A stretch of DNA of 48,297 bases, taken from Patescibacteria group bacterium (lineage in GTDB: Bacteria > Patescibacteriota > Patescibacteriia > PEXW01). The stretch lies in contig JBBTRK010000004.1 in the NCBI GenBank assembly GCA_038065235.1, positions 1 through 48,297 of the forward strand, given 5' to 3'. The position numbers and the translations under genes were made by a program. Shown here in pieces: positions 14,618 to 25,883 of this stretch (positions are counted from its first letter, which is position 1; each line of letters begins with the position of its first letter). The notes beneath the pieces were generated by a model. It worked only from the letters and a program-made list of their open reading frames with translations, did not search any database and had not been told where the DNA came from.

Positions 14618-14646
14618 GTATCCTCCTTGATTCATGTGTTTTTCTA

Positions 14647-14721
14647 TTTCTCCCCCACCCGTCGAGGCGTACTCAACGTGTAAGGGAGAAAGGCGAACGG
14701 TAGTGGTATGTACTGTTCGCC
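14647..14721 (-). repeat. Inter-ORF double-hairpin repeat, copy 1
   Basis: Variable hairpin followed by TTTCTCCCTTAC-AC-GTTGAG-TACGC-CTCGAC-GG-GTGGGGGAGAAA. Confidence 0.9.
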
Positions 14722-15198: not shown

Positions 15199-15237
15199 TA
15201 TTCCCTCCTTGGGATTTTAAAGGTGTATTGGTTTTTA

Positions 15238-15306
15238 TTTCTCCCCCACCTGTCGAGGCGTGCTCAACGCGTAAGGGAGAAGGACGAGCTGCATATGCAA
15301 CTCGTC
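15238..15306 (-). repeat. Inter-ORF double-hairpin repeat, copy 2
   Basis: GACGAGTTGCAT/ATGCAGCTCGTC followed by TTCTCCCTTACGCGTTGAGCACGCCTCGACAGGTGGGGGAGAA. Confidence 0.9.
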
Positions 15307-15781: not shown

Positions 15782-15816
15782 ATTTCCTCCTAGGAATCTG
15801 GTTTTTTTAGTTTTAG

Positions 15817-15896
15817 TTTCTCCCCCACCCGTCGAAGTACTTCAACGCGTAAGGGAGAAAAGGAAGGGCAGTAAGGAGCAACTCAACCGCCCTTCT
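15817..15896 (-). repeat. Inter-ORF double-hairpin repeat, copy 3
   Basis: GAAGGGCGG..CTGCCCTTC followed by TTTCTCCCTTACGCGTTGAAGTACTTCGACGGGTGGGGGAGAAA. Confidence 0.9.
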
Positions 15897-15995: not shown

Positions 15996-16197
15996 GCGAT
16001 GTTTGTTGGCTGGAAGGGCCTCGCAGCCCTGTATACCTTTTGGGTATCGAGCATCCCTGCTCCGGGCTCTCATCCGCCGGCTATTCCGGACCAGCCAAAT
16101 TTTTTGGTTTCTCATCTCGAACGGCCTTTACTGAAAGACCAACCGAGATAAGTGGGGAATGAATTGCTTCGATTCCCCGAATGTACGTATTACAATC

Positions 16198-16380
16198 CTA
16201 CAGGGCAGCAATGGCAAAGATCAGTATGATCACGCCACAGATACCCGAGGTTATTATTGTTGTGAGGCCCGCATGAACCAAAGTCTGGTTCTGCGCCATT
16301 TTCCCGAATGCCGTTACCACTATGCCAGCGATGACGAACATTACGGCAATACCAATACCAAGAACAAGTATTGAAAGCAT
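16198..16380 (-). CDS. Small 2-TM protein (60 aa)
   Basis: TAAGGAG-aaaaa-ATG; two hydrophobic helices. Confidence 0.7.
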   Translation of the reverse strand: MLSILVLGIGIAVMFVIAGIVVTAFGKMAQNQTLVHAGLTTIITSGICGVIILIFAIAAL

Positions 16381-16400
16381 TTTTTCTCCTTACCAAAATG

Positions 16401-17060
16401 TTTCTTTCTATCAATCTGGAGGTGAGGTAGCCCTGAACCACTCATCCCGCGCATGCGGGATTCGGGTACAGGGCGGGGACGTTTTGGACCGAAGCCCACG
16501 CCCGAGTGATGGTTAAGTGTCTTTGGCAAGCTAGGCCTGCCGCGATACCGCACCATCGAGAAAGTCGCCTCCAAGTTGATAAAAAGAAAGTATTGTTTCT
16601 TCCCTCACTCGGTCTGCAAGACCCCGAGCATGCCACCGCCGTTGGCGGGGTCCCGCAGTAGGCGGTGATCGAGGGGCAGATCGGTTAAGGGAAAAATGAG
16701 TTGTCAATATACATGAGCCTTTGCGTGTAACGATCTGGAGGTGAGACGTAGCCTGCTTTGGACCGAAGCCCGCAGACCAACGAGGGTTGAGTGTCTTTGG
16801 CGAGTAACCCTGTACCAGTCGCTTGCGCTTCCGGTGCAGGGCGAGACCCGCCGCGATACCGCTCCCTCACATCTCGCTTGCTCATCCTTGCGGATGACCA
16901 ACCCCCTCCATATCGTTAGGCACAATCTCTCGACTACGCTCGAGATCTAACGAAAATCGCACTCCTGTGAGAGAGCACAACGATTAAATATGAGGTCCTT
17001 TTGGCCGCTCTCTCTTTCGGCAAAGGGACTGCTTGGGGAATGTTTAGATTTTCAACGTAA
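16401..17060 (-). ncRNA. Long structured leader/ncRNA containing two copies of an unrecognised motif
   Basis: Starts just after the promoter and has no credible ORF. It contains duplicated blocks with compensatory changes, cUUCGg loops, and G-U pairs that favour the minus strand. Confidence 0.65.
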
Positions 17061-17066
17061 CTGAGG

Positions 17067-17095
17067 AGTATACACGCGGGAGTATATCCTGTCAA
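17067..17095 (-). promoter_or_regulatory. sigma70 promoter
   Basis: TTGACA-17 bp-TATACT on the minus strand; +1 near 17060. Confidence 0.85.
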
Positions 17096-17104
17096 TATCA
17101 CAAA

Positions 17105-17137
17105 TGGCTAAGGTTAGCCAAAAGGGCTAAGGTTAGC
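17105..17137. promoter_or_regulatory. Tandem palindromic operator-like sites GGCTAA-GG-TTAGC
   Basis: Two copies 19 bp apart, just upstream of the -35 box. Confidence 0.5.
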
Positions 17138-17167
17138 GGAAAAAGTGATACGTAATCCCCTGAATTT

Positions 17168-17211
17168 CCTCCTCTCCCATTGGGAGAGGGTCCGCGAAGC
17201 GGGGGTGAGGG
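17168..17211. repeat. REP-like hairpin flanking the DUF559 gene
   Basis: cctctcccattgggagagg...gggggtgaggg. Confidence 0.75.
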
Positions 17212-17213
17212 AA

Positions 17214-17558
17214 CTAATCTCGTATCTCGAGGTGAATCTTCTCTAAAACTATTTCTGGCTGCTTTTCAAAATCGTTGTTCCAAACTCGGATTACTTTGTA
17301 CCCTTGAGATCGTAAATATGCATCTCGTACCTGGTCACTTTCTTGATTAACCTGATCGTCATGTTGCCCACCATCTAGTTCAATGACGATGTGTTTTTCA
17401 CGGCAACAAAAGTCTGCCACATATTCACCTATAACAAATTGACGATGAAACTTCAAACCAAAAAATCTACGAGCACGCAATCTCGCCCACATCTTTACTT
17501 CGAATGGGTTTCGCTCCTTCCGCAATTTTCGAGCAATGGGCGTTAAACTATTTTGCAT
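17214..17558 (-). CDS. DUF559 / Vsr-like endonuclease
   Basis: ARKLRK...E.KMWARLR...KFHRQ..IGEYVADF...VIELDGGQH...RDAYLRSQGYKVIRVWN. Confidence 0.92.
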   Translation of the reverse strand: MQNSLTPIARKLRKERNPFEVKMWARLRARRFFGLKFHRQFVIGEYVADFCCREKHIVIELDGGQHDDQVNQESDQVRDAYLRSQGYKVIRVWNNDFEKQPEIVLEKIHLEIRD

Positions 17559-25229: not shown

Positions 25230-25275
25230 GACGTATTGAGTAAAGTGAACACCACGTCTAATGATGTTCACTAGT

Positions 25276-25883
25276 GCCAACGCTAACTGATAAGCCGAAT
25301 TCTGTGCGCAGCACCCCGAGCGAGGCCTTACGGCCGAGTCGAGGGGTACGCGACGACTATCTCTCTAGGACGTACATTGCTGCACGCCTCTTGCAGCCAA
25401 CCCGCCCTGAACCATTCGCCTTGCGGCTTAGGTACAGGGCCTACTTGGCCTTGCACCGGAGAGGGTTTACCACAGGCTGCATCACTGCAGACCCGCGTGA
25501 GCTCTTACTTCACCCCGCACCCGTAAGCACGAGGTTATCCCCTCACCATTACTGTTGCCAATAGTGGTGCGGGGCTCACGATTTCAACCTTACCTGAACC
25601 TCTTGCGAGGCCATCGGCGGTATATTTTCTGTTGCACTGGCCCTAGGCTTGGTCCATCCAAAAACTCGCGAGGACTCTTTGGATGTCTTACTCCCGGTTG
25701 CCGTTAGCAACTCTCCATGACCTCGTTTCTTAGCTTCGGCTGGTAAACCTACGAAAGTATTTCGAGGGCTTGCCGGCCGAAGCCTTGGCGTAGGTCGGTG
25801 TTCGGACTTTCCTCCCTAACACCCGAGCCTCGCTGTAAAGCGAGAAGCGAGTGGTTTAGGGCAGTCGTCTTGTTAACGTAGGC
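25276..25883 (-). ncRNA. rnpB: RNase P RNA (type A), expanded
   Basis: Minus-strand GGAGGAAAGTCCGAAC, GTGCAACAGAAA, GGTAAACCC..CCGGTGCAAGGCCAA and ACAGAATTCGGCTTAT; P1 helix GCCTACGTTAAC/GTTAGCGTTGGC. Confidence 0.95.

Follow-up and report, generated by a model that had tools for sequence, protein, structure and literature searches.

A lineage-restricted structured RNA domain in the leader and between the cistrons of a Patescibacteria gene island

Introduction

Second-messenger riboswitches precede many unrelated genes and occur in tandem, and the riboswitch classes that bind cyclic di-GMP (c-di-GMP) are likewise found ahead of many genes with nothing in common. Clustered, intercistronic copies without gene association are the pattern of the twister, hatchet, pistol and bacterial hammerhead ribozymes. 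In Bacillus-type mRNA decay, with its set of RNase Y, RNase J and RNase III, 5'-proximal structures and sequences resembling the Shine-Dalgarno (SD) sequence stabilize mRNAs, and RNase III cuts helices of two turns. To our knowledge, almost no regulatory RNA has been characterized in the Patescibacteria (candidate phyla radiation), whose genomes are minimal. Here we describe an RNA domain encoded twice, in tandem, on contig 4 (JBBTRK010000004.1) of the genome of a Patescibacteria group bacterium (GCA_038065235.1; 0.895 Mb, 93% complete; G000 among the genomes compared here), the whole analyzed stretch of 48,297 nucleotides (nt) being called the window below. An earlier note, made from the letters of this DNA alone, had singled out the two copies as an unrecognized RNA motif with compensatory base changes and proposed it as a riboswitch or ribozyme candidate. 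We show that the element is an RNA-level, strand-specific, independently folding domain that lies in leaders and between cistrons, and we weigh what such a domain may do.

Results

Two Tandem Copies Share One Fold

The two copies, each about 190 nt long, follow one another on the minus strand:

16728-16918, minus strand: copy A of the RNA domain, delimited by its fold; covariance-model match of 164.9 bits (E 5.7e-37) covering the full model
16401-16589, minus strand: copy B of the RNA domain, delimited by its fold; local model match of 65.4 bits (E 6.6e-13) on the core at 16476-16557, the outer stems being read from the sequence

The blocks that the earlier note had listed as invariant, TGGAGG, GCGGTATCGCGGC, GCCAAAGACACT, GGGCTTCGGTCCAAA and CACCTCCAGAT, all stand in both copies at the positions it had given, and a repeat search recovers them as families D3 (48 nt, 79% identity), D6 (28 nt, 82%) and D10 (18 nt, 89%). 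The helices it had described as exchanged between the copies are likewise present, GAGGG/CCCTC in one against GATGG/CCATC in the other, GGCGGGT/ACTCGCC against GGCAGGC/GCTTGCC, and TAACGAT/ATCGTTA against TATCAA/TTGATA, and the predicted structures of both contain the GGGC-UUCG-GUCC tetraloop hairpin. A pattern of two of these blocks occurs exactly twice in the 0.895-Mb genome, and the reversed pattern used as a control does not occur at all.

Both copies are built on a common plan, in which helix P1 leads into the UGGAGG/CCUCCA helix and then into a short helix, GAG.../...CUC, beyond which stand an arm carrying GGUAUCGCG...AAAGACAC and the GGGC-UUCG-GUCC hairpin, followed by an AAA bulge within a stem of 6-7 base pairs (bp). 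In copy A, P1 is UAACGAU/AUCGUUA, followed by the invariant UGGAGG/CCUCCA helix, the long arm with its GGUAUCGCG...AAAGACAC blocks, and the C(UUCG)G hairpin with the AAA bulge; an extra hairpin is present on the 5' side, and the tip of the arm is longer by 38 nt than that of copy B. Copy B, whose P1 is UAUCAA/UUGAUA, has no 5' hairpin, carries an additional 3' hairpin, and is closed by an extended stem of 22 bp that includes UGGAGG/CCUCCA. The extra 5' hairpin and long tip of the one and the extra 3' hairpin of the other indicate that the copies are paralogous variants rather than simple duplicates. The closing stack formed by P1 and P2 is 14-22 bp long; in copy B it comprises 22 bp with one mismatch, and in copy A, P1, P2 and P2b together make about 21 bp with bulges, so that both copies attain the coaxial helix length of RNase III substrates, which is about 20 bp or longer. 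Both folds are far more stable than expected from composition, at -98.8 kcal/mol for copy A (z -6.82) and -93.8 kcal/mol for copy B (z -8.64), with none of 200 dinucleotide shuffles as good in either case.

Covariation, Conserved Core, and Strand

A covariance model, R1, was built on an alignment of five copies, for which RNAalifold predicts 59 pairs, 15 of them with compensatory changes. All homology searches described below use this five-sequence model, drawn mostly from one genus, which may miss distant members, and the distribution obtained is thus a lower bound. We aligned to R1 the 40 matches at E<=1e-4, which come from 27 sources and represent 39 distinct sequences. In this alignment, which is fitted to the model, standard pairs fill 94.1% of the cells (68.8% in shuffles), and covariation scores 0.426, where shuffled alignments score 0.12 and sliding the pairing partners by 1-3 columns yields no more than 0.081. 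In 500 shuffles no observed measure of pairing or covariation was equaled. The compensatory changes first noticed between two copies thus extend to the family, 48 of the 59 pairs varying on both sides among the 39 distinct copies, and a model-independent alignment agrees: MAFFT followed by RNAalifold on 18 diverse copies recovers P1 (eight pairs, seven with double changes), P2 with its UGGAGG/CCUCCA strands, and the tip of P5 with the UUCG hairpin. Across the same 18 copies, the 5' strand of the UGGAGG/CCUCCA helix is free of substitutions and its 3' strand has C for U in a single copy.

In the filtered alignment the following order is universal. P1, of 7-8 bp and any sequence, is followed by an A (or U) facing a G, by UGGAGG and then G-rich bases, and by GAG...; a variable arm comes next, then a 7-bp stem and the string G-N-G-C-UUCG-G-N-C-AAA, and the element closes with ...CUC, an A or G, CCUCCAG and the 3' strand of P1. 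The GGUAUCGCG and AAAGACAC blocks are specific to the family of the window's genome, the arm of other families showing, by eye, a similar internal loop with UGAUC opposite CUUCA. Of the conserved junction nucleotides proposed in the earlier note, conservation holds within the genus and breaks down between families, where the filtered alignment shows the bases of the three-way junction to differ. The 3' strand of the invariant helix, UCACCUCC, is identical to eight bases of the 3' end of the genome's own 16S ribosomal RNA (rRNA), GGAUCACCUCCUUUCU, and since it shares this anti-SD tail sequence the invariant helix resembles a preformed SD:anti-SD duplex.

The frequency of G-U pairs (27 at one pair, for example), together with the weak score of the reverse strand (14.9 bits against 179.1 bits), indicates an RNA read from the minus strand. 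These features bear directly on the idea of a DNA-level element, such as a recombination hairpin of the attC kind or a miniature inverted-repeat element, through which cassettes of open reading frames (ORFs) would be exchanged. Conserved elements do flank ORFs that are swapped between close relatives, and the element ends form inverted repeats; the frequent G-U pairs are strand-specific, however, the conserved UUCG loop and AAA bulge are features of RNA, and the genome holds just two copies. No integrase or transposase domain was found among the neighbors tested, and whereas integron attC sites conserve structure only, at the level of single-stranded DNA, the loop and bulge sequences here are invariant. 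A DNA-level role is extremely unlikely. A coding explanation was also rejected, as the overlapping ORFs are not conserved, arm lengths differ by non-multiples of three and the helices covary.

No Match to Catalogued RNA Families

No family of Rfam 15 reaches its gathering score on the element, in line with the earlier description of the motif as unrecognized. Over the entire window, searches at gathering scores return the RNase P RNA and two tRNAs only; a search of 16100-17300 at E<=10 yields just three matches at chance level (13-18 bits), and E-value scans of 12 related loci and of L009, a locus that overlaps the window, place nothing on the element. Both outcomes named beforehand as speaking against a new motif, an Rfam match and homologs whose supposed pairs do not covary, were looked for, and neither was found.

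The yybP-ykoY Mn2+ riboswitch was considered as a specific candidate. The strings GGGGAGUAG, after the GGAGG helix, and GUUGACA, a short way past the element, occur in some members and resemble the conserved loops of yybP-ykoY. The likeness is not borne out: the strings are not universal among family members, and RF00080 has no match at E<=1 on eight loci including the look-alike members, or at E<=10 on the window, and the candidate was dropped.

Full-text literature searches found no description of the motif, although the supplementary lists of large motif-discovery papers could hold it, and PMC11109978, searched by term, contains no occurrence of Patescibacteria, Saccharibacteria, "candidate phyla", Parcubacteria or GGAGG. 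We conclude that the domain is a real, previously uncatalogued RNA family absent from Rfam.

Rfam likewise has no match on the element for any known self-cleaving class (hammerhead, twister, twister-sister, hatchet, pistol, HDV-like, glmS, hairpin, VS). A new class of self-cleaving ribozyme, which would cut the polycistronic transcript of the island described below into single-cistron mRNAs, could nonetheless be considered: several copies cluster between cistrons and keep no particular gene as a neighbor, invariant nucleotides adjoin the internal loop between P1 and P2, and a candidate type III hammerhead lies in one homologous island. Set against this are the failure of the known models to match even at E<=10 on the window or E<=1 on eight related loci, the fact that the hammerhead link is a single case, and RNA contigs that are uninformative about transcript ends; a new ribozyme class is unlikely.

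Distribution Within the Patescibacteria

In the window's own genome R1 matches copies A and B and nothing else. An initial two-block pattern allowing up to three mismatches had matched 4 of the 13 genomes of the order, all from the window's genus, and R1 extends this to 9 of the 13, which corresponds to eight of the 11 other genomes of the family. Matches occur in 7 of the 151 genomes of an even sample of the class and in three of seven genomes from the order of one distant match, and in a phylum-wide sample of 151 genomes the window's own genome is the sole match. A stricter pattern (TGGAGGNG, gap, CTTCGGNNCAAA, gap, CCTCCAG) was run over all species genomes, giving 16 loci of which R1 confirms 13, and over JGI metagenomes, giving 17 loci with 12 confirmed. 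The three unconfirmed genome loci, labeled Oscillibacter, Bryobacterales and Bacillota, belong to unrelated phyla and are about as many as chance would give, and they were dropped, as were as chance matches the five metagenome loci that match the pattern and not the model. Three same-genus genomes without a match (G003, G005, G006) are uninformative, the contig of G006 breaking off within the gene that immediately precedes the expected site, and G003 and G005 having no close homolog of that gene. On the sequences searched, the element is apparently restricted to a few families within one class of Patescibacteria.

Public records that carry the element are mostly titled as metagenome-assembled genomes of the Patescibacteria group or of Candidatus Kerfeldbacteria, a few third-party annotation (TPA) assemblies being labeled otherwise, and groundwater and aquifer metagenomes also hold the stretch. 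Three TPA records in which the element scores much as it does in the window's relatives (L027, L028, L034) are titled "uncultured Gammaproteobacteria bacterium" and one (L020) Saccharibacteria. Since the element is otherwise found in Patescibacteria genomes only, and L034 gives the same scores as the same-genus genome G007, these labels look like misassignments.

The element occupies one locus per genome, often in tandem copies. G032, G308, G008, G009 and G012 have two to three copies each; tandem pairs are seen in G098, G032 and G308, with a third copy in G098 placed after an ORF of 293 amino acids (aa), and a third copy in G007 lies between two ORFs.

A phage origin was rejected, the stricter pattern having no match in viral contigs and the sampled island ORFs having no match in PHROGs.

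Promoter, Leader, and the Downstream ORF

The two copies stand in a leader of defined order, whose other parts are as follows:

17067-17095, minus strand: sigma-70-type promoter TTGACA-17 nt-TATACT, agreeing with the consensus at 11 of 12 positions, about 150 nt upstream of copy A; the arrangement is kept in G002 and G007
16968-17016, minus strand: conserved leader hairpin AGAGAGAGC...GCUCUCUC, variable at its tip, separating the promoter from copy A and paired in the whole-leader fold
16702-16707, minus strand: UUGACA(A) in an AU-rich linker, recurring after the element, with no -10 box following
16596-16696, minus strand: spacer hairpin H, UUUUUCCCUUAA...GUGAGGGAAGAA, variable at its tip, separating copy A from copy B and forming a separate domain in the fold
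16198-16390, minus strand: SD sequence AGGAG (16390-16386) and a hydrophobic 60-aa ORF (16380-16198; mean hydropathy 1.93)
17102-17139, strand not assigned: two tandem 19-nt repeats, each with a GGCTAA..TTAGCC palindrome (AAATGGCTAAGGTTAGCCA twice), just upstream of the -35 box; repeat family D9

The predicted transcript thus runs from the leader hairpin through copy A, the AU-rich linker with UUGACAA, hairpin H, copy B and an A-rich linker to the SD sequence and the ORF, and in the fold of the entire 716-nt leader A, H and B form separate domains. The spacing that the earlier note had reported between copy B and the 60-aa ORF is accurate, the extended stem ending at 16401 and the ATG lying at 16380, a gap of 20 nt. 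The stem of the leader hairpin recurs with another tip in G002, G007 and G008 (upstream of L010:1501), and the base of hairpin H recurs with other tips in G002 and G004 and is absent from G007.

UUGACA(A), usually as GAACGUUGACAAUU or AUAUUGACAAC, is found 25-30 nt after the element for 14 of the 35 elements listed, in several families, and may be a single-stranded cleavage or binding site. Its reading as an internal promoter after copy A was rejected, as there is no -10 box at 16-18 nt and no sigma-70 match was called. The palindromes at 17102-17139 might serve as an operator, or else terminate transcription of the gene upstream; comparable palindromes stand upstream of the promoter in G002 and G007. 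Similar heptamer-like repeats, GGCTTAC/GGCCTAA, fill the variable tips of the leader hairpin in G008 (tips seen in L004, L005 and L010) and the replaced copy-B interiors of G002 and G004; the repeats and palindromes could be a protein-binding module or a small insertion module.

One study's metatranscriptome contig is identical to the window over 16544-16898, at a low depth that shows neither ends nor level and is no proof of transcription; an RNA contig from another study, subject to the same limits of depth, ends, level and proof, holds a relative of copy A without the tip at 16805-16846. The strong promoter, the compact stable fold and the coverage of the element region by these low-depth library contigs, themselves no proof of transcription, would fit a stand-alone small RNA or protein sponge that is adjacent to small ORFs by accident. 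This account is nevertheless quite improbable, given that no terminator-like site was found after any copy and no promoter ahead of the internal copies, and that copies lie 16-31 nt from an SD sequence and start codon on the same strand.

The 60-aa ORF has no match in Pfam, PHROGs or NCBIfam. The whole-leader minimum free energy (MFE) structure (17060-16345, minus strand) pairs a conserved 5' segment around CCCUUUGCC with the SD sequence and start of this ORF, a pairing that may be due to chance; long-range closure of a ribosome binding site (RBS) by the 5' end is known from type I toxin mRNAs. The element could on this basis be the structured leader of type I toxin-like small hydrophobic peptides, whose translation would stay off until processing or until removal of an antisense RNA. 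The ORFs directly behind the elements are mostly 50-107 aa long and hydrophobic (seven of the nine closest above 0.7), the predicted whole-leader structure does pair the 5' part of the leader with the RBS of the 60-aa ORF, and a weak antisense promoter-like site (9 of 12 positions) lies on the plus strand at 16371-16399. That site, however, falls within chance expectation (four sites found, 1.9 +/- 1.2 expected), and the ORF whose start it overlaps has given way to unrelated ORFs in G002, G004 and G007; moreover, the RBS lies outside the element in an A-rich linker, and some downstream ORFs are 276-293 aa long or hydrophilic. A toxin leader is accordingly very unlikely.

A Hypervariable Gene Island Behind a Conserved RNA

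Members of the genus share about 90% of the RNA, whereas the ORF that follows it changes, G002, G004 and G007 having unrelated small ORFs in its place, and at the position of copy B G002 and G004 keep the long outer stem around an unrelated interior. Across the family, nine elements have an SD-preceded ORF of 50-107 aa starting 16-31 nt past their end, a count that leaves out spurious automatic ORF calls running into the next element; seven of these nine ORFs are hydrophobic (mean hydropathy >0.7), and other downstream ORFs measure 276-293 aa or are hydrophilic. Blastp among 62 island ORFs links nine pairs, all within the same genome or between close relatives and none between families. At five distant loci every same-strand downstream ORF tested is without a Pfam family, and at the sixth (G059) the contig ends before any such ORF. 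The genes upstream of the six distant loci are unrelated housekeeping genes, and a conserved partner gene was rejected, as upstream genes differ by family (DUF4012/DUF559, Memo/A2M, NUDIX/SpoU, CTP synthase/L9, ComEC).

In the window, the 60-aa ORF is followed on the same strand by ORFs of 153, 153, 181 and 76 aa that by eye contain signal or transmembrane segments, the sampled island ORFs having no match in Pfam, PHROGs or NCBIfam. Beyond the island lie MurJ and an ORF that by eye resembles the GTPase LepA; upstream are DUF559, DUF4012 and glycosyltransferase genes and then, by eye, genes for a glycosyltransferase, a chain-length determinant and a sugar transferase. The three larger island ORFs have a leader hairpin of their own:

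15807-15860, 15228-15287 and 14637-14696, minus strand: three copies of a second leader hairpin, UUCUCCCUUACGCGUUGA...GGGUGGGGGAGAAA; repeat families D1, D2 and D5

Each of these stands about 30 nt upstream of the SD sequence of the next island ORF (153, 153 and 181 aa). Like the main element, the second hairpin closes with pyrimidine-rich CUCCC paired to SD-like GGGAG, and comparable hairpins, CUCCCAGAGCC...GUUGCGGGAG, stand behind the main element in both G059 and G098.

These observations are the ones against which a new class of riboswitch or aptamer has to be judged, one that would sense a global signal (an ion or a signaling molecule) and tune the translation of diverse small envelope proteins, with tandem copies that would sharpen the response. 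In its favor are the position in the 5' untranslated region (UTR), directly upstream of an RBS on the same strand; a conserved structure supported by covariation; a complex three-way junction with invariant unpaired nucleotides (an A.G mismatch by P2, a G-rich bulge, the AAA bulge); the tandem copies; and the single locus per genome, which fits a specific regulon. An association with one pathway or function of the kind seen for riboswitches is not apparent, however, as each family has its own, unrelated ORFs behind the element and none of the gene families there is conserved. The P1-P2 stack of 14-22 bp is long, and too stable, for a switching helix; no terminator was found after it, and CCUCC could pair with the SD sequence, by eye, over only about 4 bp, the SD linker being A-rich and open. 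The junction nucleotides differ between families, and the outer stem is kept around an unrelated interior in G002 and G004. Neither a GGDEF nor a DAC cyclase was found in the 93%-complete genome, which makes c-di-GMP and c-di-AMP unlikely ligands. Taken together, we regard a riboswitch as fairly unlikely.

The genome encodes RNase Y and RNase J, together with two RNase III-domain genes (G000:C20:25173-25568 and G000:C15:11568-11945, in open frames of 233 and 256 aa). A search for RNase E/G in this 0.9-Mb, 93%-complete genome found none. On the metagenome contig L046, a type III hammerhead candidate at 35-89 of the minus strand (42 bits, E 2.8e-6; gathering score 48.5) has a complete CUGAUGA...GAAAC core and lies about 45 nt past the stop of the ORF that follows the island's third element. 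Type III hammerheads were not found in five other element-bearing genomes, and in eight loci of 9-18 kb and the 3-kb L009 no ribozyme except RNase P RNA was found. In the window the RNase P RNA (25275-25880, minus strand; class A, 150.8 bits) measures 606 nt against a model of 367 positions and has large insertions, of 126, 73 and about 30 nt, in peripheral helices; its counterparts in G002 and G007 are 462 and 416 nt long.

Discussion

A Gene-Independent Expression Module

The family described here is large (130-190 nt), strongly covarying and better conserved than the proteins it precedes, and it is tied to a single hypervariable island of small membrane or secreted proteins, of the kind expected to mediate contact with host cells. 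The association of the RNA independently of the gene behind it, the closing stack of 14-22 bp, and the failure to find a terminator or any extended pairing to the SD sequence argue for a generic expression module rather than a metabolite switch, as does the second hairpin family ahead of the remaining island ORFs; a stack of RNase III substrate length in a genome with RNase III genes points to processing as a theme. We therefore tentatively favor, above each alternative though at less than even odds, a cis-acting module that is independent of the gene behind it, is recognized by a protein or RNase, and serves mRNA processing, stability or translation.

The lineage-restricted cis-acting domain, found both in the leader of one hypervariable gene island and between its cistrons, folds on its own into a rigid Y shape. 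The covarying P1 and the invariant GGAGG:CCUCC helix form its base, and above them stand a variable arm, whose internal loop is semi-conserved, and the invariant C(UUCG)G hairpin, which bears the AAA bulge. The folded unit would be recognized by a protein, most plausibly a double-strand-specific RNase or an RNA-binding protein, and in a setting where mRNA decay presumably proceeds by RNase Y, RNase J and RNase III it may set the 5' end of the cistron behind it and shield that end, or serve as an insulator for the cistron. Processing or binding of the element would then set the stability or translation of the downstream mRNA for a small membrane protein. The hammerhead candidate of L046 hints that transcript cutting matters in that island.

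Several points weigh against this proposal. The invariant 6-bp helix, UUCG loop, AAA bulge and internal loop exceed what a barrier or an RNase III site needs, and sequence constraint of this kind is more typical of aptamers, ribozymes and specific ribonucleoproteins. The element has a single locus per genome, where a general stability device would be expected elsewhere too, and tandem copies (A then B, and those of G098, G032 and G308) are not needed for protection; both the tandem copies and the restriction to one locus would also suit an aptamer or ribozyme. In addition, the RNA evidence consists of low-depth metatranscriptome contigs, unable to show processed ends, and the hammerhead association is seen at one locus and in none of five element-bearing genomes. 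A bolder version, which we consider unlikely, holds that the element is either a new self-cleaving ribozyme class of a few Patescibacteria lineages or an RNA whose locked GGAGG:CCUCC helix, through its likeness to the SD:anti-SD duplex, blocks RNase J or engages the ribosome, and that it would cut and insulate the cistrons of a fast-evolving island of surface proteins.

Each outcome would be of interest. If the element is a riboswitch it responds to an unknown signal, and if a ribozyme it represents a rare new catalytic class; if an SD:anti-SD-like helix module directed at nucleases or ribosomes, it offers a new form of cistron insulation and a compact part for synthetic biology. With the covariance model and 39 distinct sequences, the riboswitch, ribozyme and module readings are all directly testable in vitro.

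Comparison with Known Systems

As in tandem and multicopy riboswitches (glycine; c-di-GMP-I and -II), a junctioned, aptamer-like fold closed by P1 lies in the 5' UTR, in tandem and in several copies per genome; unlike these, the element has no Rfam match, a closing stack of 14-22 bp, no expression platform that was found, and a genome in which no cyclase was found. A further likeness to the yybP-ykoY Mn2+ riboswitch lies in membrane-protein genes downstream, whereas RF00080 does not match and the downstream ORFs are without any Pfam family. With small self-cleaving ribozymes (hammerhead, twister, twister-sister, hatchet, pistol) it shares a clustered, intercistronic placement and the lack of gene association, while differing in showing no similarity to their Rfam models and, at 130-190 nt, in being larger than most.

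The leader hairpins of aprE and ermC and the STAB-SD of cryIIIA resemble it in their stable structure, in an SD-like GGAGG well ahead of the true RBS, or in both. A further likeness to 5' stabilizers of the RNase J/Y type is found in the host, where RNase Y and RNase J are present and RNase E was not found, and in the independence of the association from the gene behind; in contrast to such stabilizers, the GGAGG of the element is locked in a helix with CCUCC and thus not free for 16S rRNA, and the element is far more elaborate and more sequence-constrained. Relative to known RNase III sites, its invariant helix sequence and conserved distal arms set it apart. What it has in common with RNase III processing stems (of the phage T7 R1.1 type or of rRNA operons) is a quasi-continuous helix of about two turns, interrupted by small internal loops and forming the base of a larger structure, located between the cistrons of a polycistronic unit in a genome that has RNase III genes.

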